Assembly: GCA_020341815.1 (NCBI GenBank)
Contig: CP070837.1
Location: 135,229-199,228 of the forward strand
DNA: 64,000 nucleotides
Reading direction: 5' to 3'
Source of the DNA: Candidatus Omnitrophota bacterium
Lineage (GTDB): Bacteria > Omnitrophota > Gorgyraeia > JAFGHF01
Shown: piece by piece, positions 3,512 to 64,000 of the stretch
How positions within the stretch are numbered: position 1 is the first letter of the stretch
Layout: every line of letters starts with the position of its first letter
Program-made: the position numbers and the translations under genes
Notes under the pieces: generated by a model
Databases searched by the model: none
Seen by the model: the letters and a program-made list of their open reading frames with translations, nothing else
Told to the model about the DNA's origin: nothing

Positions 3512-4369
3512 ATGCTCCTGAAGATAAGCGCCTTTTGCAGCATTAACCTGGTCCAGTTTTTATTTATTATTTTAGCCATTTATCTCTCGGGTGTATTAAT
3601 CATCAGGCTGATAAATAGATGGGTAAAGGACGTGCACCATCGCCATACGGGGCGCAAGATTACGCTTTACACGACAGTGCTGGCTATTCTGATAGTTTCT
3701 CTGATATTCTGGCTGGAAAGCGTAAAGCCGGTGGCGGTGATGATAAGTATTGTAGGCGCCGGTCTTGTAGTAGCCTTGCAGGAAGTAATCCTTTGTTTTT
3801 TCGGTTGGATTTTGATAATTTTTAAGCGTCCCTTCAGCGTAGGGGACCGGGTGGAAATTGGCTCGGTTAAAGGAGACGTCATCGATGTACGGATGTTTCA
3901 GACCGCGCTTCTTGAGGTGGGTAACTGGGTTAGCGCTGAGCAGAGCACCGGCAGGGTGGTACATGTTCCCAACAGCAGCGTATTCAGGGAAAGGGTATTT
4001 AACTATACCAAAGGCTTTGCCTTTATCTGGAACGAGGTCAAGGTAACCGTTACTTTTGAGACCAACTGGGCCAAGGCCAAAGAGATTGTTTTGCGCCAGG
4101 CCGGCTCCCAAGCAGATGAACTGAAAGCAAAGGCGCAGACGTCCATTGAAAAAATGGCTCAGCGCTATATGATTCATTATGAGAAATTTACGCCTATTGT
4201 CTATGTAAACATCGTTGATTATGGCGTAGAGCTTACCTTGCGTTATCTGACGCAGGTACGCGAAAGGCGCACGACCGAGGACAGGATATCGCGAGGTATC
4301 CTGGAGGAGTTTAACCGGGAAAAGGATATACAGTTTGCTTATCCTACTTACCGCATTGTAAAAAAATGA
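3512..4369 (+). CDS. mscS: Small-conductance mechanosensitive channel (MscS family)
   Basis: Three N-terminal transmembrane helices and an MscS beta-domain motif (PFSVGDRVEIGSVKGDVIDV). Confidence 0.8.
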   Translation: MLLKISAFCSINLVQFLFIILAIYLSGVLIIRLINRWVKDVHHRHTGRKITLYTTVLAILIVSLIFWLESVKPVAVMISIVGAGLVVALQEVILCFFGWILIIFKRPFSVGDRVEIGSVKGDVIDVRMFQTALLEVGNWVSAEQSTGRVVHVPNSSVFRERVFNYTKGFAFIWNEVKVTVTFETNWAKAKEIVLRQAGSQADELKAKAQTSIEKMAQRYMIHYEKFTPIVYVNIVDYGVELTLRYLTQVRERRTTEDRISRGILEEFNREKDIQFAYPTYRIVKK

Positions 4370-4480
4370 ACCCCGCCCTTCCCAACACTATGCTTTGCAT
4401 AAGAGATATTGGCGAAGGCAATAAAAGGAAGGGTTGGGGATATAACCCTGGCATAGCGATGAAAGGAAGAGCGGGGTGAA
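4366..4480 (+). repeat. IR-flanked intergenic repeat element (RPE/MITE-like), copy 1, subfamily A
   Basis: Left end TGAACCCCGCCCTTCC includes the mscS stop. Right end GGAAGAGCGGGGTGAA includes the SD-like motif and the glgC GTG start. Core is TTGCATAAGAGATATTGGCGAAGGCAATAAAAGG. Confidence 0.8.
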
Positions 4481-5696
4481 TAAGATACTTACATTTATTA
4501 TGGCCGGAGGAAAAGGGGAAAGACTTTTTCCTTTGACCAGGGAAAGAACCAAGCCGGCGACTCCCTTCGGAGGCGTCTATCGAATTATTGATTTTACTTT
4601 AAGCAATTGCATCAATTCGGGCCTACGCAAAGTCTGCGTGCTTACTCAATATAAATCCAGCTCCCTTAATCATCACTTAACTATGGGCTGGAGTATCTTA
4701 AACAGCGAATTGGGTGAGTATATCGATGCTGTTCCGGCCCAGCAGAGAATTAGCGATACCTGGTACTTAGGCACGGCCGATTCTATTTATCAAAATCTTT
4801 ATCTGGTTATCGAAGAGACCCCTGATTATGTCCTTATTCTGGCTGGCGACCATATATATAAGATGGACTATGGCCAGATGCTCCAGTTTCATCGCAAAAG
4901 ACGCGCCGACCTTACGGTTGCAGTTGTGGAGGCTCAAAAGGAAGAGGCTCATCGCTTGGGTATCCTTGAGGTCGACAGGAGGATGCAGGTGCGGGGTTTT
5001 CAGGAAAAACCCAAAGGGCCTGAGGGTATTTTCGGCAGAACAGACTCTGTCTATGCCTCGATGGGGATATATGTTTTTAGCCGGGAAGTCCTGATTGAGG
5101 AACTGGCCGAAGATGCTGCCAGGCAAAACTCTGAACACGACTTTGGGAAAAATATAATTCCCCAGATGGTCGGCAAGCGAAAGAAGATTTTTGCCTATAA
5201 TTTCAAAGACCCCGAAAGCAATACGCCGAAATACTGGAGAGATGTGGGGGATATCGATGCCTATTATGAGGCAAATATGGATTTGGTGCGGGTTACGCCC
5301 GAATTTAATCTCTATGATAAAGAGTGGCCTATTCGTACTTATCAGGAGCAGTTTCCCCCGGCAAAGACCGTCTGGAGCGGCCAGGAAAATAAACGGCGCA
5401 TCGGCCAGGCTATTAATTCTCTGATTGCCAGCGGATGTATTATAAGCGGAGGCTTGGTAAAGAATTCTATCCTTTCTCCTGCGGTGCGCATTAATAGCTT
5501 TGCCGAGGTTTATGATTCCATTATTATGGAAGGCGCAGAAATCGGAAGGTTTGCTAAAATCAAAAGGGCAATCATCGATAAAAATGTCAGGGTTTCTCAA
5601 GATGCGACAATCGGCTACGACCCGATAGAAGACAGAAAGAGATTTACGGTTAGCGAATCAGGAATTACCGTGGTAGGCAAAGGGGCCAGCGTCTAA
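4476..5696 (+). CDS. glgC: Glucose-1-phosphate adenylyltransferase
   Basis: N-terminal MNKILTFIMAGGKGERLFPLT nucleotidyltransferase motif. GTG start lies inside the repeat element. Confidence 0.9.
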   Translation: MNKILTFIMAGGKGERLFPLTRERTKPATPFGGVYRIIDFTLSNCINSGLRKVCVLTQYKSSSLNHHLTMGWSILNSELGEYIDAVPAQQRISDTWYLGTADSIYQNLYLVIEETPDYVLILAGDHIYKMDYGQMLQFHRKRRADLTVAVVEAQKEEAHRLGILEVDRRMQVRGFQEKPKGPEGIFGRTDSVYASMGIYVFSREVLIEELAEDAARQNSEHDFGKNIIPQMVGKRKKIFAYNFKDPESNTPKYWRDVGDIDAYYEANMDLVRVTPEFNLYDKEWPIRTYQEQFPPAKTVWSGQENKRRIGQAINSLIASGCIISGGLVKNSILSPAVRINSFAEVYDSIIMEGAEIGRFAKIKRAIIDKNVRVSQDATIGYDPIEDRKRFTVSESGITVVGKGASV

Positions 5697-6970
5697 TGCG
5701 ATTGAACATTACCGAGAAAATATTGTTAGCGCATACAGATCGAGAAGAGATCTCACCCGGAGAAATTATTGAGGCCCGCGTAGATTTGGCCCTGGGCAAC
5801 GATATTACCGCGCCCCTTGCTATTAAAAAATTCAAGGCCGCAGGCATCAAAAAGGTGTTCAACCGCGAAAGGATTGCTCTTGTCTGCGACCATTTTGTGC
5901 CCAATAAGGACGCTCCCAGCGCCCGTCAGTGCCGGATGGTTGAAGACTTCGCCCGTGATTTTAAGATTAATCATTTTTATCCCCTGGGAGAAGGCGGCAT
6001 TGAGCATGTGCTTTTGCCTGAGGCGGGCCTGGTTCTTCCGGGAGATTTGATTATAGGGGCCGATTCGCACACCTGCACCTACGGCGCCTTAGGGGCCTTT
6101 TCCACAGGAGTGGGCTCAACGGATTTAGCGGCGGTCTGGATTACGGGAAAGATTTGGCTGCGCGTGCCCGAATCGATGAAGTTTATCTATTCCGGAAAAT
6201 TAAGACCCTGGGTAGGCGGCAAAGACCTTATCCTGCACACCATAGGCGATATCGGGGTCTCCGGAGCTACATATAAGGCCATGGAGTTTACCGGGCCTGC
6301 GATTAAACATTTGTCCATGGATGACAGATTCTCGATGTGTAATATGGCTATTGAGGCCGGGGCAAAATCAGGGATAATTGAAGCGGATAAAATAACGCGT
6401 AAATATATTAATTCAGTCGCTAGTCGCTTGTCGCTAGTATCTAGTAAAAGATTTTATAAAAGCGATAGGAACGCCAGGTATTGCGACATGAGGGAATATG
6501 ACGTAAGTAAACTCCAGCCGCAGGTGGCCTGTCCGCATCTGCCCAGCAACGTAAAGCCCGTAGGCGAGCTGAAAAAAGTAAGCATAGACCAGGCGGTAAT
6601 CGGCTCCTGCACCAACGGGCGGATTTCCGATTTGATGACAGCGGCCAGAGTCCTGAAAAACAAAAAGGCTAATTCCCGGGTAAGGTTAATCGTTTTTCCG
6701 GGCACGCAGCAGATTTATCAAGAGGCCCTGAAGATGGGCTTAATGGATATATTTATTGATGCCGGTGCAACTATTTGTCCGCCTACCTGCGGGCCCTGCC
6801 TTGGCGGGCATATGGGCGTTTTAGGTGATAAAGAAGTGGCTATCGCCACCACTAATCGTAATTTCCGCGGTAGAATGGGGGCTTTAACAAGTAAGGTGTA
6901 TTTGTCTAATCCGGCTGTAGCAGCGGCAAGTGCCGTTCATGGCACGATTACGCATCCGGGAGAGAGTTGA
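5696..6970 (+). CDS. leuC: 3-isopropylmalate dehydratase large subunit (archaeal-type LeuC/aconitase family)
   Basis: Aconitase-family Cys ligands (CTNGR, CGPC) at a length of 424 aa. Followed by leuD and leuB. Confidence 0.85.
   Translation: MRLNITEKILLAHTDREEISPGEIIEARVDLALGNDITAPLAIKKFKAAGIKKVFNRERIALVCDHFVPNKDAPSARQCRMVEDFARDFKINHFYPLGEGGIEHVLLPEAGLVLPGDLIIGADSHTCTYGALGAFSTGVGSTDLAAVWITGKIWLRVPESMKFIYSGKLRPWVGGKDLILHTIGDIGVSGATYKAMEFTGPAIKHLSMDDRFSMCNMAIEAGAKSGIIEADKITRKYINSVASRLSLVSSKRFYKSDRNARYCDMREYDVSKLQPQVACPHLPSNVKPVGELKKVSIDQAVIGSCTNGRISDLMTAARVLKNKKANSRVRLIVFPGTQQIYQEALKMGLMDIFIDAGATICPPTCGPCLGGHMGVLGDKEVAIATTNRNFRGRMGALTSKVYLSNPAVAAASAVHGTITHPGES
6414..6446. repeat. Heptamer tandem array inside leuC (AGTCGCT AGTCGCT TGTCGCT AGTATCT AGTA)
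   Basis: The 7-bp periodic repeat is directly visible. About 30 nt nearly match the array at 15675-15712. Confidence 0.6.
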
Positions 6971-13506: not shown

Positions 13507-13620
13507 ACCCCGCCCTTCCTAAAAAATGCAACTTAAGTATTGCAAAGAAGCGCTGGGGAGCTTTACTTTTGTTAAAAAAATGTATACAGAATAAGGGATG
13601 AAAGGAAGAGCGGGGTGAAG
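13504..13620 (+). repeat. IR-flanked intergenic repeat element, copy 2, subfamily B
   Basis: Left end TGAACCCCGCCCTTCC includes the argC stop. Right end GGAAGAGCGGGGTGAAG includes the argJ GTG start. Confidence 0.8.
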
Positions 13621-14823: not shown

Positions 14824-15678
14824 ATGAAAAAGGCGATACAGAAGGCGGATATTTTATTAGAGGCCCTGCCTTATATTAAGAAGTTTCAGCATAAGGTTAT
14901 GGTGATAAAGTGCGGGGGCAGGCAGTTAATGAATAAACACATTATTGATAATATCCTGCAGGATATAGTGTTTATGAATTGCGTGGGCCTGAATCCGGTG
15001 CTTATCCACGGAGGCGGCCCCAGCATTAATCAGACACTGCAAGATTTAGGCAAAAAGATAGAGTTTCATCAGGGCTTTCGTGTTACGGATAAGCATACCT
15101 TAACAGTGGTGGTTAAGGAGTTAAATAAGCTTAACCAGTTAATGGTGAAGAAAATCAGGCAACTGGGAGCAAAGGCCGAAGGCCTAAGCGGTCAAAAGGG
15201 TAAGGCAATTAAAGCAAAAAAATTGCATTTCGATAAGAATATCGGTTTTGTGGGAGAGGTGGCCGCGATAAATACGCAAGGGATAAAAAATTTATTAAAA
15301 AGAGGAGTTGTGCCGGTACTTACTCCTTTGGGAATAGGCAGGGACAATCAAATTTACAACATTAATGCCGATATGGCAGCGGCGGAGATAGCCGCACAAT
15401 TAGGAGCGTGGAAACTGGTTCTTTTGACCGATGTGCAGGGTATTATGTATAGTCAAAGGGATAAAAATTCGCTGATTTCGACTTTGAAAATAGCAGAGAT
15501 TAAAGCTTTGATTAAAAAAGGCATTATCCATGGAGGGATGCTGCCCAAGGTTGCTTCCTGCGTAAAAGCATTAAAAAATGGAGTAAAAAAGACGCACATA
15601 ATTGACGGGGGAACCCCTCGTTCCTTGCTTCTGGAAATCTTTACCAATGAAGGTATCGGTACCCAGATTGTCAGTTAG
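14824..15678 (+). CDS. argB: Acetylglutamate kinase
   Basis: VIKCGG and the amino-acid kinase fold, with arginine-cluster context. Confidence 0.9.
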   Translation: MKKAIQKADILLEALPYIKKFQHKVMVIKCGGRQLMNKHIIDNILQDIVFMNCVGLNPVLIHGGGPSINQTLQDLGKKIEFHQGFRVTDKHTLTVVVKELNKLNQLMVKKIRQLGAKAEGLSGQKGKAIKAKKLHFDKNIGFVGEVAAINTQGIKNLLKRGVVPVLTPLGIGRDNQIYNINADMAAAEIAAQLGAWKLVLLTDVQGIMYSQRDKNSLISTLKIAEIKALIKKGIIHGGMLPKVASCVKALKNGVKKTHIIDGGTPRSLLLEIFTNEGIGTQIVS

Positions 15679-15812
15679 TCGCTCGTCGCTCGTATCTGGT
15701 ATCTAGTAAGAAGTAAGACAGAAACAATAAAATTTTTTAAATATTTAGAAATTACACAAAAAGTTTTTAATAACTAGATACAAGATACTGGATACTAGAT
15801 ACTAGTAAAAAT
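15675..15812. repeat. Inverted arrays of GTATCTNG/GTCGCT heptamer repeats flanking an AT-rich core (argB-argD intergenic)
   Basis: Left arm is TAGTCGCTCGTCGCTCGTATCTGGTATCTAGTAAGAAGTAAG. Right arm is CTAGATACAAGATACTGGATACTAGATACTAGTAA, the reverse complement of tandem GTATCTNG units. About 60 bp of AT-rich sequence lies between them. Confidence 0.6.
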
Positions 15813-17922: not shown

Positions 17923-18043
17923 TGAACCCCGTTACTCCCAAGCACCACGCCTTGCATAATAGATATGGGCGAAGCTAATAAAAAGGAATAGCGGGGATAA
18001 AGATTTGGCATTAGGATGAGATGAAAGGAGTAACGGGGTGAAA
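17923..18043 (+). repeat. IR-flanked intergenic repeat element, copy 3, subfamily A, with compensatory arm changes
   Basis: Left end TGAACCCCGTTACTCC and right end GGAGTAACGGGGTGAA, including the argG GTG start. The arms differ from the other copies but remain mutually complementary. Confidence 0.8.
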
Positions 18044-19207
18044 AAGGTAATTTTAGCCTATTCGGGAGGATTGGATACTTCTTGCTGTGTAGTTTGGCTT
18101 AAAGAGCAGGGGTTTAAGGTGATTACCTATACCGCAGATTTAGGCCAGGGAATAAACTTTGCCCAGCTGAAGAAAAAGGCCAAAGATTGCGGGGTAAGCA
18201 AGGCCTATGTTCAGGGCTTAAAAGATAAGTTTCTCAAACATTTTGTTTTTCCTACGCTTCGTGCCGGGGCAATCTATGAAGCAAAATATCCTCTGGCTAC
18301 AGCCTTGGGCAGGCCCTTGATTGCCGAGGGCTTGGTGGAGATTGCCCATAAAGAAGGGGCTGGATATATCGCCCACGGCTGCACCGGAAAGGGTAACGAC
18401 CAGGTGCGAATTGAGGTCTCTGTAGCAGCCCTGGATAAAAAAATAAAAACGATTGCACCTTTAAGGGAATGGGACTTAAAAACAAGAGAAGAGGAAATAA
18501 AATATGCCAAAAAACACCAGATTCAGGTTTCCGCTACCAAAAAGAGCCCTTACAGCACAGACTTAAATCTCTGGGGCAGAAGTATTGAATGCGGGGTATT
18601 AGAAAACCCCTATCATGAGCCTCCGGAAGAGATTTATGAGTTAACCGAAAATCCGCTTAAATGTCCAAATAAAGCAACTTATGTAACAATTGAGTTTGCC
18701 GAAGGCGTGCCTGTAAAATTAAACGGAAAAGCACAGGGAGCAGTTGCTCTTATATCCAAGCTTAATAAAATAGCCGGTGCCTGTGGTGTAGGCAGGATTG
18801 ATATGGTGGAAAACAGGCTCGTTGGAATTAAAAGCAGGGAGATTTATGAGGCCCCGGCAGCGATAGTTCTTTACCTTGCCCATCGTGAGCTGGAGGATTT
18901 GGTCTTAGATAGAGAAACTGCCCAGTTTAAAAGAATTGTTGCAGAGAAATATTCGCAGTTAGTCTACAACGGCCTCTGGCACACGTCGCTAAAGAGCGCC
19001 CTGGATAAGTTTGTTCAGGTCACACAGAAAAATGTCACAGGTGTTGTTAAAATGAAGCTGTATAAAGGCAGTTGTGTATGTGTAGGCAGAAAATCGCCCT
19101 TCTCCTTGTACAAAAAAGAACTGGCCACATATGAAAAAGGGGATAAGTTTGATGCATCCGCAGCAAGCGGCTTCATCAAGATTTGGGGCCTGCCATATAA
19201 TAGTTAA
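18038..19207 (+). CDS. argG: Argininosuccinate synthase
   Basis: AYSGGLDTS PP-loop and argininosuccinate synthase signature. GTG start. Confidence 0.9.
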   Translation: MKKVILAYSGGLDTSCCVVWLKEQGFKVITYTADLGQGINFAQLKKKAKDCGVSKAYVQGLKDKFLKHFVFPTLRAGAIYEAKYPLATALGRPLIAEGLVEIAHKEGAGYIAHGCTGKGNDQVRIEVSVAALDKKIKTIAPLREWDLKTREEEIKYAKKHQIQVSATKKSPYSTDLNLWGRSIECGVLENPYHEPPEEIYELTENPLKCPNKATYVTIEFAEGVPVKLNGKAQGAVALISKLNKIAGACGVGRIDMVENRLVGIKSREIYEAPAAIVLYLAHRELEDLVLDRETAQFKRIVAEKYSQLVYNGLWHTSLKSALDKFVQVTQKNVTGVVKMKLYKGSCVCVGRKSPFSLYKKELATYEKGDKFDASAASGFIKIWGLPYNS

Positions 19208-19229
19208 TTGATAAAAAGGAGAAAAAACA

Positions 19230-20927
19230 ATGCCTAAAATCAATGTAATACTTTTGATTGGTTTGGCTGCTATTGTTACGAGCACATCCTTTGCCGAAGA
19301 ATTCACCCTGACCACCTATTACCCCGCCCCATACGGGGTATATCGCGAGATGCGCGCACAAAGAATGGCCATAGGAGATAACTTCTATGATGCCTCGGCC
19401 TATTGTTGGCAGGGAACTTGTACCGATGCCATAGGTTCGGCTGCCGATTTAGTTGTACAGGGTGATGTGGGTATTGGAACTCATAATCCTTCAAGGAGAC
19501 TGACTATTGCCGGAAGCGGCGGATACGGCGAAGCAGGAGCCGCGGCAATCGGGCTGGAAAATACATCAGCAACAGGCACCAACTGGCAGTGGCACGTAAG
19601 AGATGACATGCGGGCTCAACTCGTTGACTACACTACAGCAGGCATAACAAGATTTTTGGCTTCATCAGGTAATGCTGTAGGATACATATATGTTGATGGA
19701 ACAGACGGTAATGTAGGCATTGCCGCAACCGGGACATTTAGTCCTGTAAATAAGCTGGATGTGGATGGAGCAGTTGCCATTGGCGATACTTACGCGGGAT
19801 CATCCACAGCGCCTGCTAACGGGTTGCTTGTTGAGGGTAATGTCCGTTTCAACAGTGCTATAGCGCGGCAGGGCTCGACCCTGGCAGGTAACGCTCCTGC
19901 CACCCACGTTAATTTAGGAGCAAGTAGCACTACAGGGTGGAAAGGAACAGGAGCAGCCGGCTATGCAACAGTGGGGGGAGGATATAATAATAAGGCAATA
20001 TTGGATTACACCACGGTTGCTGGTGGATCGGGCAACAAAGCAGATAATAGCTGGTCAACAGTTGGCGGTGGAAAGTCAAATAGTGCAATTGACTATGCCT
20101 GTTTCATTGGAGGCGGGGATGGCAATTCTGCAAAAGGAGACTGTTCTTCAATTTTAGGTGGCAAGAACAATCAGGCTGCGGATAACTACTCTACTGTAGC
20201 AGGAGGCATAGCCAATAAAGCTATCGGCAGAGTGTCTTTTGCAGCAGGAGCATTGGCAACAGCTAGACATGATGGTAGTTTTGTTTGGGCTGACTATTCA
20301 GAAAGTGTAGAGTATGCTTCTAATGGAGAAAACACCTTCAACATCCTTGCCGACGGAGGTATCTATTTTACTGGAGCAGCTGGGACCAATAACTTAAGAT
20401 ATAGGCCGGGTGACATTGCAGAGTTTGTCGATACCCTAAAAAAAGACCGACTTCAGGAAGCAGAGATAGTCAGTATAGTGGACAATAATCTTTTTGGCAG
20501 GACAACAAAGCCTTATGATGAGAACCTAATGGGGGTTATTTCCGGGGATAGGACCTGTTCTTTTTATATAGGCCAGACCGAAAGTCTCAAAGAAGAGATA
20601 GAGCGCTTGCCCATAGCTTTGGCCGGCCCTGTGTATGTGAAGGTAACCAGCGAGTCAGGTAATATAGCTATAGGCGATTCCATAACTTCATCGGCTATTG
20701 CAGGTGTAGGGATGAAGGCTACTCGAAGCGGCAAAATCATCGGTTACGCGATGGAAAATGAGGATTTTTCTGATGCCGGAGAGATAAAAGAAATTTTGGT
20801 ATTTGTTAATATAGGATATTATATGGCAAATGATGATTTTCGAAAGTTAACACAACTTGAGCAAAGCTTGACTAAGATTGAACGCTTAGAAGAAGAGATA
20901 GAGATGTTGAAGGCGGAATTATTTTAA
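19230..20927 (+). CDS. Secreted glycine-rich repeat protein (tail-fibre-like / YadA-head-like repeats) with C-terminal coiled coil
   Basis: Signal peptide MPKINVILLIGLAAIVTSTSFA. Repeated xTVAGG.GNKA / SxxGGG.xNxA units and a C-terminal heptad coiled coil (LTQLEQSLTKIERLEEEIEMLKAELF). Inserted between argG and argH. Confidence 0.6.
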   Translation: MPKINVILLIGLAAIVTSTSFAEEFTLTTYYPAPYGVYREMRAQRMAIGDNFYDASAYCWQGTCTDAIGSAADLVVQGDVGIGTHNPSRRLTIAGSGGYGEAGAAAIGLENTSATGTNWQWHVRDDMRAQLVDYTTAGITRFLASSGNAVGYIYVDGTDGNVGIAATGTFSPVNKLDVDGAVAIGDTYAGSSTAPANGLLVEGNVRFNSAIARQGSTLAGNAPATHVNLGASSTTGWKGTGAAGYATVGGGYNNKAILDYTTVAGGSGNKADNSWSTVGGGKSNSAIDYACFIGGGDGNSAKGDCSSILGGKNNQAADNYSTVAGGIANKAIGRVSFAAGALATARHDGSFVWADYSESVEYASNGENTFNILADGGIYFTGAAGTNNLRYRPGDIAEFVDTLKKDRLQEAEIVSIVDNNLFGRTTKPYDENLMGVISGDRTCSFYIGQTESLKEEIERLPIALAGPVYVKVTSESGNIAIGDSITSSAIAGVGMKATRSGKIIGYAMENEDFSDAGEIKEILVFVNIGYYMANDDFRKLTQLEQSLTKIERLEEEIEMLKAELF

Positions 20928-30503: not shown

Positions 30504-30564
30504 AAGGCCCCTGTAATTGCTGCTTGGCCCGTTCAAAATTTTGAATGGGCTTTACAGGGGCCTT
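30504..30564. promoter_or_regulatory. Nested palindrome overlapping the uvrA promoter
   Basis: Outer arms are AAGGCCCCTGTAA / TTACAGGGGCCTT. Inner palindrome is GCCCGTTCAAAATTTTGAATGGGC. TTTACA(30551)-17-TATAAT(30574) overlaps the right arm. Confidence 0.55.
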
Positions 30565-30588
30565 ACCCTTTGCTATAATCGGACTAAA

Positions 30589-33463
30589 GATGCCTAAGGA
30601 ATATATTATTATAAGAGGTGCCAAAGAGCACAACCTCAAAAGTATCAACCTCAAAATTCCCCGCGACAAATTAGTGGTCGTGACCGGCTTAAGCGGTTCG
30701 GGAAAATCTTCTCTTGCCTTTGATACTATTTATGCCGAAGGACAGAGAAGGTATGTAGAGAGCCTCTCCAGTTACGCCCGCCAGTTCTTAGAGCAGTTAC
30801 AGAAACCTGATGTAGAGCATATCGAAGGTATTTCTCCGGCAATCTCTATTGAACAGAGGCCCGCAGGCAGTAATCCGCGCTCTACGGTAGGCACTCAGAC
30901 CGAAATCTACGATTACCTGCGTCTTTTATTTGCCCGTGTAGGCAGGGCCCATTGCTATAAATGCGGCCGGGAGATTTCTCGCCAGAGCCCACAACATATC
31001 GTAGAGCAGATTCTCAAATTACCTGCCGAAAGCAATATTATGCTTCTGGCCCCTTGCATCCGGGGGCGTAAAGGTGAATTTCGTCAGGTCTTTAGCGACA
31101 TTCGCAAACAGGGTTTTGTGCGCGTACGGGTGGATAATAAAGTCTACGACATAGACGAAATAAACCCCGCCCTTCTTAAAAACCCTACGTCAAAGAATAT
31201 GTATAGATTGAGCGACAAAAAGAAGGGCGGGGTGAAATTAGATAAAAAAAGAGCTCATAGTATCGAAGCGGTAGTGGATAGGCTCAAGGTTAACCCTCTT
31301 GAGAAATCAAGGCTTACGGATTCGGTGGAGACTGCCTTAAAAGCAGGAGGAGGAATAGTAATTGTTTCCAGACTCATCAAAAAAGGGCGTTGGCAGGATA
31401 TGCTCTTCAGTGAAGATTATGCCTGCGTTGATTGCGGCATAAGTTTTGCTGAGCTGCAACCACGCGATTTTTCCTTTAACAGCCCTTATGGAGCATGCAG
31501 CGCCTGTAATGGGCTGGGCACCAAGATTGAGGTGGATCCGGATCTTTTAGTGCCGGATAAAAACCGCTCGCTTTCCGAAGGCGCACTTGAGCCTTGGAGA
31601 AAAGGAGGCAGGGGTTATATCCTATATTATCGAGGGCTGATAAGGGAATTGGCCAGACAAATGGGCTTCAGTATAGATATCCCTTTTAAAAAACTAAATA
31701 AAAATGTGCGCAAGGCGATTTTTTACGGATGCGACGAATATGTCTGGGGCAAGCCGTTTGAAGGGGTGATTCCCCACCTGGAGCGTCTTTTCCGGGAGAC
31801 CGAGAGCGAGTATTTAAAATCCGAAATCAATAACTTTATGAGTATCTTGCCTTGTCCTGTCTGCGACGGGGCGCGCCTGAAAAAAGAAAGTCTGGCCGTA
31901 ACCATCAATAATAAAAGCATATGGGATGTGGTCAGAATGTCTATTAGCCGGCTCAAAGGTTTTTTCGAAGAGTTGGATCTTACTCCCGCAGAAAGCATAA
32001 TTGCCCATCAGGCCCTCAAGGGCATTAAGGAAAGATGCAGATTTATGCTCAATGTGGGGCTGGACTATCTGACTTTAGAGAGGGCCGCCGGTACTCTTTC
32101 CGGAGGCGAGGCTCAACGCATTCGCCTGGCCACACAGGTGGGGGCGGGGCTAGTGGGTGTGGTTTATATACTGGATGAGCCCAGTATCGGCCTGCACCAG
32201 AGGGATAACAGGAAGCTTCTGAACACGCTTTGCGCTCTTCGGGACCTGGGAAACAGCTTGATTGTCGTAGAGCATGATGAGGCCACTATAAGGTCTGCAG
32301 ATTATATTATCGATCTGGGGCCCGGGGCAGGCCGTCATGGCGGAAAGGTTGTAGCCTGCGGAAGCTTTAAGAGTTTATTAAGGTCGCGCGAGTCTTTAAC
32401 CGCCAGATATCTGCGCGGGCAGCTTAAAATAGAAGTGCCCAAGGCAAGGAGAAAGATAAATGCCAAGGCCCTGCAGGTCTGGGGTGCACGCGAACACAAT
32501 CTAAAAAATATAAATGTGCGTATCCCCCTGGGGTTATTTGTCTGCGTCAGCGGCGTATCCGGCTCAGGCAAAAGCACGCTTGTGGATGAGATTCTTTACC
32601 GGGGCCTGGCAAAGAAGCTCTACCGCCATAAAGAAAGGCCCGGGGCACATGACAAAATTACCGGAGCGGAATTTATAGATAAGGTGATTGTGGTGGATCA
32701 GTCTCCCATTGGCCGCACGCCCCGCTCTAATCCGGCTACCTATTCAGGGGTTTTTACTCATATCCGTGAGCTTTTCTCTAGACTTCCGGAGTCGCGTATG
32801 GCAGGATATAAGCCGGGCAGGTTCAGCTTTAATCTTAAAGGCGGAAGGTGCGAAGACTGCCAGGGCGAGGGGATAAAAAGGATAGAGATGCACTTTCTTC
32901 CCGATGTTTATGTTAGCTGTGAGACTTGTCGGGGCTTAAGGTTCAACGAGCAGACCTTGGGAATAAAATATAAGGGAAAATCTATTGCCGATGTTTTGAA
33001 TATGACAACGGAAGATGCCTTGAACTTATTTAAGAATATCCCCAGAATCAGAGAGAAGCTGGCAATTCTTAATGATGTGGGCCTGGGGTATATTCAGCTG
33101 GGTCAGTCGGCAACTACCCTCTCAGGAGGCGAGGCCCAGAGACTGAAGCTTTCTGCGGAATTAGGCAAGAGGGCTACCGGCAAGACGCTCTATATACTGG
33201 ATGAGCCCACAACGGGATTGCATTTTGCGGATATAGATAAGTTACTCGCTGTTTTACAGAGATTGGTTGATATGGGTAATACAGTGCTTGTGATCGAGCA
33301 CAATTTGGAGGTGCTTAAAAGCGCCGATTATATTATTGATTTGGGGCCTGAAGCAGGAGAGTCCGGAGGCCGCATTGTTGGCTGCGGTACACCGGAAGAA
33401 CTGGCCAGGATTGAAAGTTCCTTCACCGGTAAATATTTGAAAAAGATTTTGATGAGATGCTAA
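30589..33463 (+). CDS. uvrA: Excinuclease ABC subunit A, carrying an in-frame repeat-element insertion
   Basis: Two ABC ATPase modules ([20 protein letters not shown]), zinc fingers and signature motifs. Start taken at the ATG at 30589 after the promoter. Confidence 0.9.
31160..31237 (+). repeat. IR-flanked repeat element, copy 4, subfamily B, inserted in-frame inside uvrA
   Basis: TAAACCCCGCCCTTCT ... GAAGGGCGGGGTGAA, translated as [27 protein letters not shown] within UvrA. Confidence 0.75.
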
Positions 33464-37642: not shown

Positions 37643-37712
37643 TTAAGTAGGCGTAGTAGATATATTACAACACTGCGGTCATTAGAACTGTTAAACAGAA
37701 AGGTAGGTGAGT

Positions 37713-38081
37713 ATGATGGTTACCTTTGGAGAATTCTTTAAACAGAAAAGAATTTCTTTAGGTAAGACATTAAGGCAGTTCTGCTTAGAGAATCAACTGG
37801 ACCCTGGCAATATCAGCAAGATAGAAAGAGGGAAATTACCTCCGCCTGCTTCAGAGGAAAAATTGAAAGAGTATGCTAAATATTTAAATATCCAATTTGG
37901 CAGTGAAGAATGGCAAACATTTAAAGATTTAGCTTCTCTTAGCGCCGGTAAGATACCCGATGATTTAAAGAATGAGCAGGAATTGCTTGCAAGACTTCCT
38001 GTATTCTTTAGGACATTAAGAGATAAAAAATTCTCGGAAGAAGATTTGAAGGAGCTGATTAAAAAAATCAGAGAATCATGA
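37713..38081 (+). CDS. XRE-family helix-turn-helix transcriptional regulator
   Basis: HTH_XRE signature (LRQFCLENQLDPGNISKIERGK). Confidence 0.75.
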   Translation: MMVTFGEFFKQKRISLGKTLRQFCLENQLDPGNISKIERGKLPPPASEEKLKEYAKYLNIQFGSEEWQTFKDLASLSAGKIPDDLKNEQELLARLPVFFRTLRDKKFSEEDLKELIKKIRES

Positions 38082-38084
38082 TAG

Positions 38085-38717
38085 ATGGAACTCCAGCCAA
38101 TATTTAAAACTAAAGAGCAAATAAATTCTGAAGCAGAAAGTTTTTTAAAAAAGTACCATCCATCCAAAGCTATCCCTATCCCAATAGAACAAATAATAGA
38201 TATACAATTACAAATCGATATTATTTCAATTCCTGGCTTAAAAGATGCCTCTGAAACATTAGACCATGATATAGATGCATTTATTTCTTCAGATTTCAGA
38301 AGTATTTCCGTAGATAAGTATATTTATGATAAAGTTGCTACCCGATATAGATTTACTTTAGCGCATGAAATTGGGCATATGATACTTCACGAATATTTAT
38401 ATGCACAATTTAAATTTAATAAAATGGATGAATTTATTACAACCATTAACGAGATGCCATTGAAGGAACGGGGAATGGTTGAATGGCAAGCCGATGAATT
38501 TGCCGGTTTAATTCTTGTGCCTCGAGAATTTCTGGAAGAGAAATTTAAAAAAGCGCTAACAAGAGCTGAAGAAGTACTCAATACATCTTTTAAGGATAGT
38601 CCGGATTTTGTAATAGATGTGGCAATTGCCTATCTTGCACAAGACTTTGCTGTAAGTGCAGATGTAGCAAGAATACGGCTCGAAAGAGATGGTTTAAAGG
38701 AAAAACAGCTTCAATAA
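38085..38717 (+). CDS. ImmA/IrrE-family zinc metallopeptidase (COG2856)
   Basis: HEIGH zinc motif (LAHEIGHMILHEY) and the downstream WQADEFAGLILVP motif. Starts 3 nt after the XRE gene. Confidence 0.8.
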   Translation: MELQPIFKTKEQINSEAESFLKKYHPSKAIPIPIEQIIDIQLQIDIISIPGLKDASETLDHDIDAFISSDFRSISVDKYIYDKVATRYRFTLAHEIGHMILHEYLYAQFKFNKMDEFITTINEMPLKERGMVEWQADEFAGLILVPREFLEEKFKKALTRAEEVLNTSFKDSPDFVIDVAIAYLAQDFAVSADVARIRLERDGLKEKQLQ

Positions 38718-38886
38718 ATAAACCATACCGACGTTGATATTGCTGTCAAAACAGGCGTTTTGAAGTGGAAAGAGTCATGAACTTTTCTCTTGACTAACCC
38801 TATATTTTATGGTATGTTAAGCCAAATTTGCCTCTCTTTAATTAGCCCGTCAAGGTTAGTCCTTTGATGACAGACTCCATATTATT

Positions 38887-41526
38887 ATGAATAAAAAAGT
38901 ATTGCTTATTGACGGTAACTCCTTTTGTTATCGTGCCTTTTACGCCATCAGAAGCCTTTCCACATCAAAAGGTCAGCCCACCAATGCGGTTTACGGTTTT
39001 GTGGCTATGCTGAATAAGCTTATCACGCAGCAAAAGCCCGATTATCTGGCAGTAGCCTTTGACCTTAAAGGGCCTACTTTTCGCCACAAGAAATTTGCCG
39101 ATTACAAAGTTCAGCGCAAGCCTATGCCGGATGATTTAAGCGTTCAATTGCCTGTGATTAAAAGGGTTCTTCATGCCTATCGTATTCCCATATTTGAGAA
39201 AAAGGGCTATGAGGCCGATGATGTTATCGCTACTTTAGCCAAGAGATTAAGCCAGACGAAAGCAGAGATATTGATAGTTACGGGAGATAAAGATATATTG
39301 CAGTTGGTTAGCAGTAATATCAAGGTAATCAATCCGCACAAAGACGATTTAGTTTTAGATGAGGGTTGGGTGAAGAAGAGGTTTGGTGTTGCGCCCGATA
39401 AAATTACCGAGATTATGGCTTTGGCAGGAGATGCCAGCGATAATATTCCCGGCGTTCCCGGCATAGGTGAGGCCACTGCCGTAGAACTGATTAAGCAGTT
39501 CGGCACACTTGATGAGGTATTAGCCAATACGGATAAGATAAAAAATAAGGCCAGGGCCGAAAAGATAAAGGAGTTTGCAAGCCTTGCCCAGATGAGCAGG
39601 GAGCTTACCCGACTGGACAGCGACATTACTCACCTGGCCGAAACCGAGCCAGGCCAGCTGCTCGGACAATTGAAAATAGTCGAGGCGGATAAAAAGGAGT
39701 TGTTTGAGATCTTTAAGGAGCTTGAGTTTAAATCCTTAATGGAGAAGGCCGCAGAAGAATTTAAGGATGAGACAGGTTATAAAGTTATTTCCGATACTAA
39801 AGAAATAGAGGAATATTTTAAAAAGCTTGCGAAAAAAGATACCATAACCTTTTATCCCGCAGGCGGGCGGCCTGACCCTGTGACGGCCAAAATATCAGGC
39901 ATTGCTTTTACTTTCGAGAGAACGAAGCCGGCGTTTTTTTCTTTCGCAGATATTTCCAAAGACGCCCTGAAGCTTATTCTGGAGAATAAAAATATAAAGA
40001 AAATCGGGCACAATTTAAAATACGCAAAAGTGCTTTTCTCCAATTACGGAATTACCTTGGAAGGTATGAGTTTCGATACGATGATTGCCGCATATCTCTT
40101 AGACCCGGCAAAACTGAAATACGGCCTGGGTGATTTAGCTTTAGAATATCTTAATTGCAAATTGGGAGATTTGCCTGATGCGGGCCTGTCTCGCCCTCAG
40201 GCGGACACAGAAAACGAGGCGGCAGAACTTGCCTGCCAGAATGTAACTATAATTTTTAGATTGAGCAAAACCTTAAAAGAAAAGCTGAAAGAAAAGAGTC
40301 TTTTGAGTTTATTTGAGAATATCGAGATGCCCCTTGCGGGAGTCTTGGCGGATATGGAAAGAGAAGGGGTTACGCTGGATAAGAAATTATTGCTTGAGCT
40401 CTCCGGAGATTTTGAGAAGAAACTGAATAGTTTAACCAGAGAGATTTATGAGATGGCCGGCGGCAGCTTCAATATCAATTCACCCAAGCAACTGAGTTCT
40501 GTTTTGTTTGATAAGCTGAAACTGCCCAGAATAAAGCGGACAAAGACAGGAAGCTCAACAGACACAGAAGTCCTGCGTAAGCTCACCAGCGTTCATCCTC
40601 TGGCCCAGCGGCTTCTGGAGTTTAGAGAGATATCCAAGCTAAAGTCCACTTATGTAGAGGGGATGATGAAGCTGTTAAAGTCTTCCTCGTCAGGAAAAAT
40701 TCACACCTCTTTCAATCAAACAGGCACCGCAACCGGCAGGCTTTCTTCAAGCCAGCCCAATTTACAAAATATCCCTATACGCACCGCTTTAGGGAGAAAG
40801 ATTCGCCGGGTTTTTGTTCCTTCGGCAGGCGACAGTTTTCTTTTATCGGCAGACTATTCGCAAATAGAATTAAGGATACTTGCCCATCTTTCGGAAGATA
40901 AAGGCTTGATTTCGGCATTTAAAGAAGACTTGGATATCCATGCCTATACGGCATCTTTAATTTTTAATGTAAGCGTTGATAAAGTATCCCGCCAGATGAG
41001 GAGCGCTGCCAAGACGGTTAATTTCGGAATTATTTACGGAATGGGCGCTTACGCCCTATCCAAGGATTTGGGCATAAAACAGGCCCAGGCAGAGGAGTTC
41101 ATCGAGGCCTATTTCCAGAGGTATCCCGGGGTGAGGAATTATGTCAAGCGCCAGACAGAAAAGGCCGCAAAAGACGGCTTTGTGACCACGCTTATGAAGC
41201 GCCGGCGCTACATCCCACAAATCCAGAGCCCTGATGAAAGCATGCGCCGCTTTGCCCAGCGCATGGCCATAAACGCGCCCGTGCAGGGCTCTGCCAGCGA
41301 TTTAATCAAGGCAGCAATGGTAAATATTCACAATGCCCTGATAAAACAAGGGCATCGGGCGAAGATGATTATCCAGGTTCACGATGAGCTGGTATTTTCC
41401 CTGCCCGAGGAGGAATTGGAGGCGCTCTCTTTGCTTGTTAAGGACAAAATGGAAAATGTAATAAAACTGAAAGTTCCGATTAAGGTTTCAATCAAAAGCG
41501 GAAAGAACTGGCTGGAGGTAAAATGA
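38887..41526 (+). CDS. polA: DNA polymerase I
   Basis: 5'-3' exonuclease N-terminus and family A polymerase motifs A, B and C (DYSQIELR, RRSAKTVNFGIIYG, QVHDEL). Confidence 0.9.
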   Translation: MNKKVLLIDGNSFCYRAFYAIRSLSTSKGQPTNAVYGFVAMLNKLITQQKPDYLAVAFDLKGPTFRHKKFADYKVQRKPMPDDLSVQLPVIKRVLHAYRIPIFEKKGYEADDVIATLAKRLSQTKAEILIVTGDKDILQLVSSNIKVINPHKDDLVLDEGWVKKRFGVAPDKITEIMALAGDASDNIPGVPGIGEATAVELIKQFGTLDEVLANTDKIKNKARAEKIKEFASLAQMSRELTRLDSDITHLAETEPGQLLGQLKIVEADKKELFEIFKELEFKSLMEKAAEEFKDETGYKVISDTKEIEEYFKKLAKKDTITFYPAGGRPDPVTAKISGIAFTFERTKPAFFSFADISKDALKLILENKNIKKIGHNLKYAKVLFSNYGITLEGMSFDTMIAAYLLDPAKLKYGLGDLALEYLNCKLGDLPDAGLSRPQADTENEAAELACQNVTIIFRLSKTLKEKLKEKSLLSLFENIEMPLAGVLADMEREGVTLDKKLLLELSGDFEKKLNSLTREIYEMAGGSFNINSPKQLSSVLFDKLKLPRIKRTKTGSSTDTEVLRKLTSVHPLAQRLLEFREISKLKSTYVEGMMKLLKSSSSGKIHTSFNQTGTATGRLSSSQPNLQNIPIRTALGRKIRRVFVPSAGDSFLLSADYSQIELRILAHLSEDKGLISAFKEDLDIHAYTASLIFNVSVDKVSRQMRSAAKTVNFGIIYGMGAYALSKDLGIKQAQAEEFIEAYFQRYPGVRNYVKRQTEKAAKDGFVTTLMKRRRYIPQIQSPDESMRRFAQRMAINAPVQGSASDLIKAAMVNIHNALIKQGHRAKMIIQVHDELVFSLPEEELEALSLLVKDKMENVIKLKVPIKVSIKSGKNWLEVK

Positions 41527-41599
41527 ACCCCGCCCTTCCAAATACCACGCCTTGCATAAAAGATATGTGCGGAAGCAATAGAAAGAAGGGCGGGGTGAA
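41524..41599 (+). repeat. IR-flanked intergenic repeat element, copy 5 (short form), subfamily A
   Basis: Left end TGAACCCCGCCCTTCC includes the polA stop. Right end GAAGGGCGGGGTGAAA includes the glgA GTG start. The element frame is open and in frame with glgA. Confidence 0.8.
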
Positions 41600-42956
41600 A
41601 GTCTTATTCTGTTCCAGCGAAGTAGTCCCTTTTGCCAAAACCGGCGGCCTGGCCGATGTAAGCGGGGCCCTGCCGCAGGCCTTAGAAAAGGAGGGTGCCG
41701 AGGTAAAGGTAGCTTTGCCCGGATACAGATCCGCAAAGGCGCACTCCCCTAAAATGGGCAAAGATATAGAGGTTTATCTTGTTCAAAACGATAAATACTT
41801 CGACCGTAAAGAATTATACGGGACAAGCAGCGGGGATTATCCCGATAATTTAGAAAGATTCGCCTTTTTCTGCAAACAGACCCTCTTGCTATTGAAAGAA
41901 AAAGGGTTCTGCCCCGATATTATTCACTGCAACGACTGGCAGAGCGCCCTTATCCCCGTTTACTTAAAGACCAATTTTAAGGATGATGACTTTTTTAAAA
42001 AGACAAAGGTTATATTTACTATTCATAACCTGGCATATCAGGGGGTTTTCCCTCAAGATGAGTTTGCCAAGACGGATCTCGATAAGCAGCTCTTTAATAT
42101 GCACGCCCTTGAGTTTTACGGCAAAGCCAATTTACTAAAAGGGGGCTTGGTTTTCTCGCGCTTTATTACTACGGTCAGCCCTACATACGCCCAGCAGATT
42201 CAAAGCGTAAAATTCGGCTGTGGACTGGATGGAGTCTTAAGGAAAAGAAAGAAAGATTTATCGGGGATAATTAATGGTCTGGATTATCATATATGGGACC
42301 CTCAGCAGGATAATAAGATTTTTCAGAAATACGGCAGGGATGATTTAGGAGACAAATACATTAATAAGGAAAAGCTGCAGCAGGAATTGAACCTACCTGT
42401 TGACAGAAATATTCCGCTTCTGGGGATAGTCACCCGCCTGGCTTCGCAAAAAGGCATAGAACTTATAATTTCAGCATTGAATAAAAAAATGCCCAAGCTC
42501 AATCTGCAATTTGTTCTTCTGGGTACGGGAGATGAGAAATACCACCATCAGCTGGAAAAGATAATGCAGAGAGGATATAAAAATATCTCTATCAGTCTGC
42601 GTTTTGATGCGGTCCTGGCGCGTAAGATTTATGCCGGGTGCGATATGTTCTTAATGCCTTCATATTATGAGCCCTGTGGGCTGGGGCAGTTGATTTCCTT
42701 GAAATACGGCACTATTCCTATCGGGCGAAAGACCGGGGGGCTGGCGGATACTATTATAGATGCACAAAACGGATTCCTTTTTGAAAAATACAGCCCTGGC
42801 GAGATGATGAGGGCCATAATGAGAGCTCTCAAATTATATGAAAACAGGGAAAAATGGCGAAGCCTGATGCTCAAAGCTATGGATTGCGATTTTTCCTGGG
42901 AGGCCTCCGCTAAAAAATATATCGAGCTTTACGGACAGGCCTTGAAAGAAGTTTAG
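41595..42956 (+). CDS. glgA: Glycogen synthase
   Basis: MKVLFCSSEVVPFAKTGGLADV is a canonical GlgA N-terminus, from the GTG at 41595. The ORF track extends it to 41523 through the element. Confidence 0.85.
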   Translation: MKVLFCSSEVVPFAKTGGLADVSGALPQALEKEGAEVKVALPGYRSAKAHSPKMGKDIEVYLVQNDKYFDRKELYGTSSGDYPDNLERFAFFCKQTLLLLKEKGFCPDIIHCNDWQSALIPVYLKTNFKDDDFFKKTKVIFTIHNLAYQGVFPQDEFAKTDLDKQLFNMHALEFYGKANLLKGGLVFSRFITTVSPTYAQQIQSVKFGCGLDGVLRKRKKDLSGIINGLDYHIWDPQQDNKIFQKYGRDDLGDKYINKEKLQQELNLPVDRNIPLLGIVTRLASQKGIELIISALNKKMPKLNLQFVLLGTGDEKYHHQLEKIMQRGYKNISISLRFDAVLARKIYAGCDMFLMPSYYEPCGLGQLISLKYGTIPIGRKTGGLADTIIDAQNGFLFEKYSPGEMMRAIMRALKLYENREKWRSLMLKAMDCDFSWEASAKKYIELYGQALKEV

Positions 42957-63112: not shown

Positions 63113-63932
63113 GGAAACCAGGATTAGCCGGGCTATTATTAAGACAGCAGTCGATGATTTATTAAACTCTCTAGAGGTTGATGTAGGTATTGCCGGAGCC
63201 GGCCCTGCAGGCTTGACATGCGCTTACTATTTGGCAAAAGGCGGAGCCAAGGTAGTTATTTTTGAGCGTCGCCTGAACTATGGCGGGGGCATACCCGGAG
63301 GAGGCATGCTTTTTCCCCGTGTAGTTATTCAGGAGAAGGCCATACCTATTATAGAAGACATAAAGGTAAAAATAAAAGAGTTTGCCCCGGAGTTATATAC
63401 CGCTGATTCCGTAGAGATGGTGGCAAAATTAGGTACCGCTGCTATCGATGCGGGGGTGAGGATATTCCCCGCGGTCTTCGTGGAGGATGTAGTTATCCGC
63501 GAAAACGACAGAGTAGCCGGTCTTGTTTTGAATTGGACTGCAATACATATGTCCGGATTGCACGTAGACCCTTTAGGGCTTAAGGCAAAGTTTGTAGTTG
63601 ATGCCACTGGACATGAGGCCCAGATTGCCCGTATAATAGAGCGTAAAATATATGGCGCGAAGTTCAGGACGCCCACGGGTAAAGTTATGGGTGAGAAATC
63701 GATGTGGGCGAAAGAGGCGGAAGAAAAAATAGTGCAATATACGGATGAGGCCTATCCAGGCCTTTATCTTGCCGGAATGAGTGTCTCTGCGGTATATGGC
63801 CTGCCGCGGATGGGCGCTATCTTCGGAGGGATGCTTCTTTCGGGAAAGAAGACGGCGCAATTGATATTGCAGAGGTTAGAGGAAGAGGTAATTATATCAA
63901 GTAAGGATAGTAATCTGGCGGCCCACCAGTAA
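63105..63932 (+). CDS. thi4: Thiazole synthase, Thi4 family
   Basis: DVGIAGAGPAGLTCAYYLA FAD/NAD motif. Thi4-like length and pattern. Confidence 0.75.
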   Translation: MIEETRISRAIIKTAVDDLLNSLEVDVGIAGAGPAGLTCAYYLAKGGAKVVIFERRLNYGGGIPGGGMLFPRVVIQEKAIPIIEDIKVKIKEFAPELYTADSVEMVAKLGTAAIDAGVRIFPAVFVEDVVIRENDRVAGLVLNWTAIHMSGLHVDPLGLKAKFVVDATGHEAQIARIIERKIYGAKFRTPTGKVMGEKSMWAKEAEEKIVQYTDEAYPGLYLAGMSVSAVYGLPRMGAIFGGMLLSGKKTAQLILQRLEEEVIISSKDSNLAAHQ

Positions 63933-64000
63933 TTCTGGTGAGGCTCGCCGAATTACTGTATAATAATCTGGCGGCCCACCAGTAATTCTGGTGAGGCTCG
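63911..64000. repeat. Tandem ~55-bp duplication overlapping the thi4 3' end, truncated by window edge
   Basis: AATCTGGCGGCCCACCAGTAATTCTGGTGAGGCTCG occurs at 63911-63946 and 63966-64000. It contains the hairpin CACCAG-TAATT-CTGGTG. Confidence 0.6.

Follow-up and report, generated by a model that had tools for sequence, protein, structure and literature searches.

A 68-nt Palindromic Element at the polA/glgA Overlap of a Candidatus Omnitrophota Bacterium and Its GIY-YIG-Encoding Relatives

The polA/glgA junction

The window analyzed here is a 64,000-nucleotide (nt) stretch of contig CP070837.1 (positions 135,229 to 199,228 of the forward strand) from a Candidatus Omnitrophota bacterium. Its subject is a 68-nt palindromic element, the fifth of five copies in the window (copy 5), which lies between the genes for DNA polymerase I (polA) and glycogen synthase (glgA). 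The polA gene (38887..41526, plus strand) is in the list of open reading frames (ORFs), ends in NWLEVK followed by TGA, scores 1075 bits against NCBIfam model PRK05755, and has a C-terminus common to its relatives. Within its 3′ end is a GGAGG (41514..41518), identical in the close relative L109 and placed 4 nt before the ATG at 41523, which is the putative ancestral glgA Shine-Dalgarno sequence. That ATG (41523..41525) overlaps the polA stop TGA (41524-41526), as an earlier note on this DNA had stated and as the sequence and the ORF list both show. It is the glgA start in relatives with an empty site and here opens a frame encoded by the element.

The 68-nt core of copy 5 (41528..41595, plus strand), a non-autonomous form, is bounded by the arms CCCCGCCCTTC (41528-41538) and GAAGGGCGGGG (41585-41595), which are perfect inverted repeats. 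On its left stands the target tetranucleotide TGAA (41524..41527) and on its right a second TGAA (41596..41599), both recognized by comparing the flanks and by BLAST of L109 against the window. The final G of the element and the TG of the right TGAA form a rebuilt GTG start (41595..41597), which is the start of NCBI protein UCB57789.1 (453 aa). The glgA gene (41595..42956, plus strand; NCBIfam glgA, 555 bits) thus encodes 453 aa from the GTG and 477 aa from ATG 41523. Across the junction the window reads ...ctggaggtaaaATGAAccccgcccttccaaatacc...agaaagaagggcggggTGAAagtcttattc....

The frame opened by ATG 41523, MNPALPNTTPCIKDMCGSNRKKGGV, reaches glgA with no stop, and the earlier note was right that this explains the mechanically called ORF of 477 aa at 41523..42956. 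From GTG 41595 the frame reads (M)KVLFCSSEVVPFAKTGG. Depending on the start, GlgA would therefore begin with MNPALPNTTPCIK... (MNPALPNTTPC...) or with (M)KVLFCSSEVVPFAK, the latter being the canonical MKVLFCSS N-terminus. The open frame is unremarkable alone, because 29% of shuffles of the copy 5 interior are also stop-free. The element and its placement, unlike this open frame, are far beyond chance. Copy 5 folds into a hairpin with a 12-bp stem (-30.9 kcal/mol, z = -4.0).

The evidence for insertion comes from relatives. L109 is syntenic with the window over 22 kb at 92-96% nucleotide identity, and its junction reads ...CTGGAGGTAAAATGAAAGTCTTATTC... with no element. In a BLAST comparison of L109 with the window, the segments share exactly TGAA, and this tetranucleotide aligns to both 41524-41527 and 41596-41599. 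L102, L103, and L105, where GlgA has its closest homologues (70-76% identity), likewise have no element, polA being joined directly to glgA through a 4-nt overlap, so the element is absent at four orthologous loci. Together, the empty sites and the TGAA overlap identify copy 5 as a recent insertion of 72 nt, comprising the 68-nt core and the second TGAA. By the same comparison, the ancestral glgA start is the ATG of the ATGA overlap, preceded by the GGAGG at 41514-41518 and encoding the same MKVLF. The insertion spares the polA stop, the ancestral ATG, and the GGAGG, and it recreates GTG-AAA-GTC with the native MKVLF.

Another lineage, L107, carries an unrelated long copy at its glgA start, which shows that the same ATGAA is hit recurrently. 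Metagenomes scanned for the exact polA/glgA junction yielded no allele of it, filled or empty. L108, the contig of P0055, was rejected; its long N-terminus is a gene-caller artefact, and it contains no clear element.

Copies of the element in the window and in other genomes

All five copies in the window lie on the plus strand, and a search with the arm pattern gave six matches where shuffled sequences gave an expectation of zero. The copies share perfect inverted arms of 11-12 nt, CCCCGCCCTTC(C)...(G)GAAG(G/A)GCGGGG, and form long-range hairpins when folded (z-scores from -3 to -5). Each has ATGAA on its 5′ side (ATAAA for copy 4) and TGAA on its 3′ side. Copy 1 (4371..4476, 106 nt) lies between an mscS-like gene and glgC, copy 2 (13508..13615, 108 nt) between argC and argJ, and copy 3 (17927..18038, 112 nt) between argF and argG; these neighbours, like polA and glgA, are confirmed by NCBIfam. 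Copy 3 has variant arms, CCCCGTTACTCC/GGAGTAACGGGG, which differ from the consensus by four compensatory changes and are fully complementary. No second copy with arms of this type was seen in the collection scans, which demanded consensus arms.

Removal of the core plus 4 nt in silico restores ATGA junctions at copies 1, 2, 3, and 5. The restored junctions, each a stop codon overlapping a start, join KK to MNKILTF (glgC), GLK to MKIIEGG (argJ), GGY to MKKVILAYSGG (argG), and LEVK to MKVLFCSS (glgA). The last G of the element and the right TGAA therefore rebuild a GTG-AAx start in place of the displaced ATG-AAx. The earlier note had also given lengths for the ATG frame within the other copies. 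Those for copies 2 and 3 (32 and 18 codons) hold, whereas copy 1, said to terminate inside the element after 26 codons, has an ATG-frame ORF of 37 codons (4366-4479), MNPALPNTMLCIRDIGEGNKRKGWGYNPGIAMKGRAG and a stop, whose TGA overlaps the glgC GTG at 4476. This leader arrangement of copy 1 is typical of the family.

Copy 4 (31165..31232, plus strand, 68 nt) lies in frame inside uvrA (30545-33463), where it adds 24 codons and is flanked by TAAA on the left and TGAA on the right. Its removal with 4 nt restores an uninterrupted uvrA, ...YDIDEI/KLDKKRAH..., and it forms a stop-free insertion in a UvrA that is otherwise intact and highly conserved. Neither the solved UvrA structures nor L109 contain it, and the ten closest homologues (one of them 97.4% identical) lack it as well. 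The 972-aa UvrA translation (30545-33460) has no exact match in a collection of 15 billion proteins, though GlgA of the same genome is present there; the depositor's uvrA annotation must differ, with another start or as a pseudogene. As a separate observation, the uvrA gene of the window is without one Ser codon just upstream of copy 4.

More than 170 copies of the family are present in public contigs of Omnitrophota. The genome set (51 copies, many of them in Candidatus Omnitrophota assemblies) was obtained by scanning one genome per species with the arms alone. The metagenome set (122 copies) was obtained with a pattern that demanded ATGAA...TGAA and is thus uninformative on flanks. In the arm-only scan, low-G+C matches of the Omnitrophota type are nearly always preceded by ATGAA, GTGAA, or ATGAG and followed by TGAA or TGAG. 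Canonical copies take a single orientation, assigned by direct listing of their ends, with ...CTTCCTAAA on the 5′ side and GAAAGGAAG... on the 3′ side. The rebuilt GTG opens a long ORF in 108 of 122 metagenome copies and in at least 40 of 45 genome copies, and an upstream ORF closes in the left TGA in about 40% of copies. Flanks co-vary as the pairs TGAG/TGAG, CTGA/CTGA, TAAA/TAAA, and TTTA/TTTA, with the mismatched pair TAAA/TGAA at copy 4, and tandem copies share one TGAA. Literature searches within a limited library of papers found no description of this family, which appears to be previously undescribed.

High-G+C matches from the genome scan, in Opitutales and others, were set aside as a different palindromic element. 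These are near-perfect palindromes of about 85-100 nt with the form ACCCA, CCCCGCCCTTCGGGCACCCCTCC...GGAGGGGTGCCCGAAGGGCGGGG, TGGGT (L003, L012, L017, L036, L092, and others). They form a multi-copy family in Opitutales, Kiritimatiellia, and other higher-G+C assemblies, and have an 11-nt arm core in common with the Omnitrophota element.

The lengths of the copies carry a reading-phase signature. Among 113 unique metagenome copies, 64 fall in the GTGA phase, and the other two phases account for 26 and 23 (chi-square p = 9.5e-7). In this favoured phase (3n+1), the ATG-frame ORF, which reads MNPALP...KGRAG, closes in a TGA that overlaps the rebuilt GTG, and length peaks occur at 64, 67, 70, 73, 76, 79 ... 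106, and 109 nt. Stop-free interiors in the metagenome set number 61 in the ATG frame and 19 and 3 in the other sense frames, and 44 of the 64 GTGA-phase copies are open. The genome set has 18 open copies where 6.0 +/- 2.2 are expected, with counts of 18, 7, and 0 by frame. Of 69 phase-2 copies, 46 have a GTGA overlap at the 3′ end, as do all three full-length elements described below.

Copy 5 belongs to a minority class that is in frame and stop-free. Nine of 27 phase-0 copies are of this kind, which is no more than expected and amounts to about 8% of all copies; related 68-nt units on L127 and L226 are also in frame and open. Interiors are highly diverse, forming 103 clusters among 122 copies, and the earlier claim that the element peptide is not conserved is true of this interior, where the peptides vary. 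Together with the phase bias, such diversity suggests that insertions and deletions are filtered by reading phase. The ATG frame is probably under family-wide selection to stay open as far as the GTGA overlap.

Tandem arrays also occur. On L226, at about 901-1100 on the minus strand, a 67-codon ORF runs across two elements and still closes on a GTGA overlap. In P0277, P0286, and P0255, ultra-short in-frame units (e.g., NPALPKERKSGV, 36 nt) or units of 68 nt stand ahead of an intact nuclease ORF or a long copy.

The full-length form and the nature of the family

Some 109-nt copies encode MNPALPKNWYYVYLLKSNTRSWIYIGCTNDLEKKGRAG followed by a stop, a peptide that resembles the N-terminus of a GIY-YIG nuclease, and a longer version is found on L127. 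A protein search with a sequence of the MNPALPKNWYYVYLLKSNTRSWIYIGCTNDLEKKGRAG type returned 45 proteins that start exactly with M(N/S)PAL(P/L). ATGAA plus the 5′ arm encodes this start, and the 3′ arm together with TGA encodes a corresponding GRAG ending; both NPALP at or near the N-terminus and the GRAG ending occur in 40 proteins of 80-120 aa. Full-length relatives score 49-56 bits against the Pfam GIY-YIG model PF01541 (cut-off 22.6). Their catalytic Tyr, Tyr, Gly, Arg, His, and Glu are invariant, at positions that include Y12, Y14, Y25, G27, R35, and E59, and the nearest structures are those of UPF0213 proteins, 1ZG2 (E = 5e-5) and 1YWL.

At three loci read as DNA (L230, L232, and L233), ATGAA, CCCCGCCCTTCC...GGAAGGGCGGGG, and TGAA follow one another between housekeeping genes. 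The three insertion sites are cdsA/dxr, nusB/PHP, and a proA-like/nadD-like pair. The cores measure 280-289 nt (~290 nt) and are all in the coupling phase, with the host gene restarting at the rebuilt GTG, e.g., VKKVVILGSTGSIG for Dxr. The interval from arm to arm is taken up exactly by the nuclease ORF, which is its only coding content. Because this ORF begins at the host ATG, the nuclease is without a start codon of its own and its first two codons are derived from the target. A stand-alone Microgenomates relative, P0301, has its own start and is intergenic, with no overlaps and no arms. Short copies retain the coding ends of the nuclease: the tails ...PGIAMKGRAG of copy 1 and ...LAKLKSRLGIAKKGRAG of L226, each followed by a stop, correspond to its C-terminus, and copy 2 agrees with its 5′ end over the first 26 nt. 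Copy 5 encodes no GIY-YIG domain.

As a whole, the evidence is very probably best explained if a non-autonomous mobile element of 68 nt inserted recently into the polA/glgA ATGA overlap, the element belonging to a family with full-length GIY-YIG members. In the proposed mechanism, the element would insert one way at an (A/G)TGAA gene start, and its terminal G plus TGAA would rebuild a GTG start. Ribosomes would initiate at the retained ATG, read MNPALP...KGRAG and its stop through the hairpin, and re-initiate at the GTGA overlap, as the sequence statistics suggest. At copy 5, ribosomes initiated at the ATG would run on into glgA and produce GlgA with a disordered 24-aa tail, with the GTG as an alternative start. 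The GIY-YIG nuclease is presumed to move both full-length and short elements. There is an even chance that the family represents a new class of prokaryotic mobile element. Such a class would be defined by a ~290-nt cassette with 12-nt inverted repeats and one start-less GIY-YIG gene, one-way insertion into ATGAA starts, translation from the host ribosome-binding site, a rebuilt GTG with a GTGA relay, and deletion derivatives that include copy 5.

Several points weigh against this account. In a global alignment of the copy 5 interior with the three full-length elements, only the arms align convincingly, and tblastn searches of the window and of L109 with the nuclease find the arm-encoded ends only and no full-length gene. 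That the nuclease drives mobility is presumed from the association of long and short forms only. Given the mismatched flanks, TGAA may have been duplicated at the target, may be a recombination core that both partners share, or may belong to the element. Insertion in the manner of IS200/IS605 elements, on the 3′ side of a tetranucleotide that is not duplicated, was considered, and it accounts for the TAAA/TGAA pair at copy 4 but fails to explain the co-varying flanks. The phase bias could partly come from the parent ORF rather than from selection, the copies having been clustered only crudely. It is also conceivable, if unlikely, that the short elements are ordinary MITEs (miniature transposable elements with inverted repeats), moved by some transposase that recognizes the inverted repeats, and that the GIY-YIG gene is cargo or a co-resident. 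Terminal inverted repeats of 11-12 nt and a 4-nt direct repeat with co-varying variants are a classical transposase signature, the nuclease has only ~96 aa and no obvious DNA-binding domain, and we know of no prokaryotic insertion-sequence family that uses a GIY-YIG enzyme. A cargo gene fits poorly with a nuclease ORF that fills the arms exactly at all three DNA-read loci, with 40 proteins that carry both NPALP and GRAG, with the conservation of the catalytic residues, and with the retention of the nuclease 5′ and 3′ coding ends in short copies. The strict orientation on an asymmetric target is likewise unusual for transposase elements with symmetric ends.

A quite different explanation would make the hairpin a host regulatory RNA that co-regulates glycogen and arginine genes, with no mobile insertion. 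It draws on the position of the element before glgC, glgA, argJ, and argG and on the stable hairpin beside start codons. The earlier note had observed correctly that glgC and glgA are each fronted by a copy, and NCBIfam confirms both gene names. The glycogen-specific link it hinted at is not supported, as the element also precedes unrelated ATGAA-starting genes (argJ, argG, dxr, nadD, and others). The plus strand of the window contains 119 occurrences of ATGAA, and about 17 gene starts are (A/G)TGAA, four of which are occupied; the pairing of glgC and glgA thus requires no functional explanation, and it is by coincidence that both glycogen genes have a copy. A regulatory RNA is also at odds with the empty sites in a 94%-identical relative and three others, with copies before a PHP gene and many other unrelated genes, with the interruption of uvrA, and with tandem copies and flanking TGAA. 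An Rfam 15 scan of the whole window gave no family at the gathering score. A glycogen/arginine regulon was accordingly rejected on the empty sites, the unrelated host genes, and the (A/G)TGAA start counts, and a host regulatory RNA of any such kind is very improbable.

The mobile element favoured here shares many features with MITEs and other palindromic repeats such as Correia, ERIC, and RUP. Like them, the family is small in unit size and high in copy number, has terminal inverted repeats and a putative short flanking direct repeat, shows empty sites in relatives, is transcribed within operons, and has a longer coding partner. Copy 5 appears to have most of the MITE features for which it was compared, namely inverted repeats, empty sites, and dispersed copies. 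Unlike MITEs, the family targets the start codon ATGAA one way, rebuilds the start, and varies in length in steps of three, and its longer partner with the same ends encodes a GIY-YIG nuclease instead of a known transposase. Rickettsia palindromic elements are likewise palindromic selfish DNA tolerated in frame within genes, as is copy 4 in uvrA and, as a tail, copy 5. Compared by behaviour only, they differ in that in-frame insertion is exceptional here (~8%), most copies lie exactly at gene starts, and the interior peptide is not conserved. The features of bacterial MITEs and Rickettsia palindromic elements used in this comparison are those of a published review (PMC10969869).

Free-standing GIY-YIG seg genes of T-even phages are promoter-less and wedged between conserved genes, and some overlap the upstream stop, which suggests translational coupling (PMC2988022). 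The full-length element is similarly a promoter-less nuclease cassette between conserved genes. Seg proteins, in contrast, bind DNA through separate domains and rely on double-strand-break repair to home to a single cognate locus, whereas the element is a ~96-aa catalytic domain within inverted repeats that borrows the host ATG and has abundant deletion derivatives. It also differs from homing endonuclease genes in having no single cognate site, since the unrelated genes it enters share only (A/G)TGAA. By sequence, the nuclease belongs to the same fold family as small GIY-YIG proteins of the UPF0213/YhbQ type (1ZG2 and 1YWL) and is 50-56% identical to stand-alone MYYVYLLKS... proteins of Patescibacteria, to which the Omnitrophota clade adds the arm-encoded MNPALP and GRAG ends.

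In the synthetic bicistronic design, a short leader cistron carries a second ribosome-binding site and stops on the downstream start, and its translation unfolds structure and delivers ribosomes. The element would be a natural counterpart of this engineered design; it differs in being natural and mobile, and only the bias in phase and stops suggests its coupling function. It would also be a selfish element that is nearly harmless to its host, as the start codon that it destroys is repaired and translation is kept coupled. If the nuclease drives mobility, GIY-YIG would join the enzymes that move bacterial insertion elements. The element accounts for disagreement between mechanical and curated starts at dozens of Omnitrophota genes, and it yields an annotation rule: the GTG to which the element contributes its last G is the native start. 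It would further supply new N-terminal or internal peptide segments in essential proteins (GlgA and UvrA).

Choice of the glgA start and minor observations

The earlier note had framed two readings of the glgA start, a 24-aa extension coupled to polA by the ATGA overlap or initiation at GTG 41595. These are the right alternatives, and sequence alone is not fully decisive between them. The extended 477-aa GlgA is somewhat favoured as a substantial product. The ancestral initiation site is unchanged, with GGAGG 4 nt upstream of the ATG and the ATGA coupling to polA intact, whereas GTG 41595 has a weaker AAGAAGG motif and sits at the foot of a 12-bp G+C stem. The intervening 72 nt keep the frame and contain no stop, so every ribosome initiating at the ATG makes the 477-aa protein. 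In an AlphaFold model of this protein (mean predicted local distance difference test score 86.7), residues 1-22 are disordered and the first strand spans 26-31, the Rossmann fold beginning at 26. Translation of like units is tolerated, both inside uvrA and ahead of intact nuclease ORFs.

Other evidence tells against a substantial long form. In the comparison of GlgA starts in relatives, which the earlier note had proposed, all of about 120 homologues begin at the native M(K/R)(V/I)LFCSSE position, i.e., the GTG site. NCBI UCB57789.1 (453 aa), to which the window GlgA is 100% identical, starts at the GTG, and an exact look-up in a protein collection found the 453-aa form and not the 477-aa form. 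De novo initiation at the ATG could be impeded as well, by a hairpin of about -30 kcal/mol that begins 5 nt downstream of it. It is accordingly possible, though rather doubtful, that glgA is translated only from GTG 41595, with the purine-rich 3′ end of the element as its ribosome-binding site and the stretch from ATG to GTG open by chance and not productively translated. Such exclusive use of the GTG would agree with the homologues and the NCBI annotation, with the chance probability of ~0.29 for an open frame, and with the phase-0 copies, which are open no more often than expected (9/27). The ATG frame, moreover, cannot reach the gene in most copies of the family, so the GTG must work there. 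It would require AAGAAGG and a GTG buried in a 12-bp G+C stem to prevail over the better signals of an untouched GGAGG and ATG, and it sits uneasily with the family-wide phase and stop bias, which implies that the retained ATG is in use, and with the lack of any in-frame stop, by which ATG-started ribosomes must give the long form. Translational bypass, akin to gene-60 hopping, was rejected for copies 4 and 5, each of which simply keeps the frame without a stop.

Directly upstream of polA, the window contains a helix-turn-helix gene followed by a gene with an M78 peptidase domain (37707-38717), an ImmA/IrrE-like pair whose Pfam labels come from the L109 orthologues. L109 has an extra 332-aa gene with a weak SIR2_2 match (18301-19299) between this pair and polA, and none is present in the corresponding interval of the window (~38718-38886). 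Elsewhere in the window, a GTCGCT-rich 33-nt motif, AGTCGCTAGTCGCT...TATCTAGTAA, occurs at 6415-6447 and 15677-15709 with 85% identity between the two sites. The first lies inside ORF 5696..6970, and the second extends from the stop codon of ORF 14824..15678. At the end of the window (63907-64000), two 41-nt direct repeats, 98% identical and 53 nt apart, each contain an internal palindrome, CCCACCAG...CTGGTG, and the array may extend past the window.

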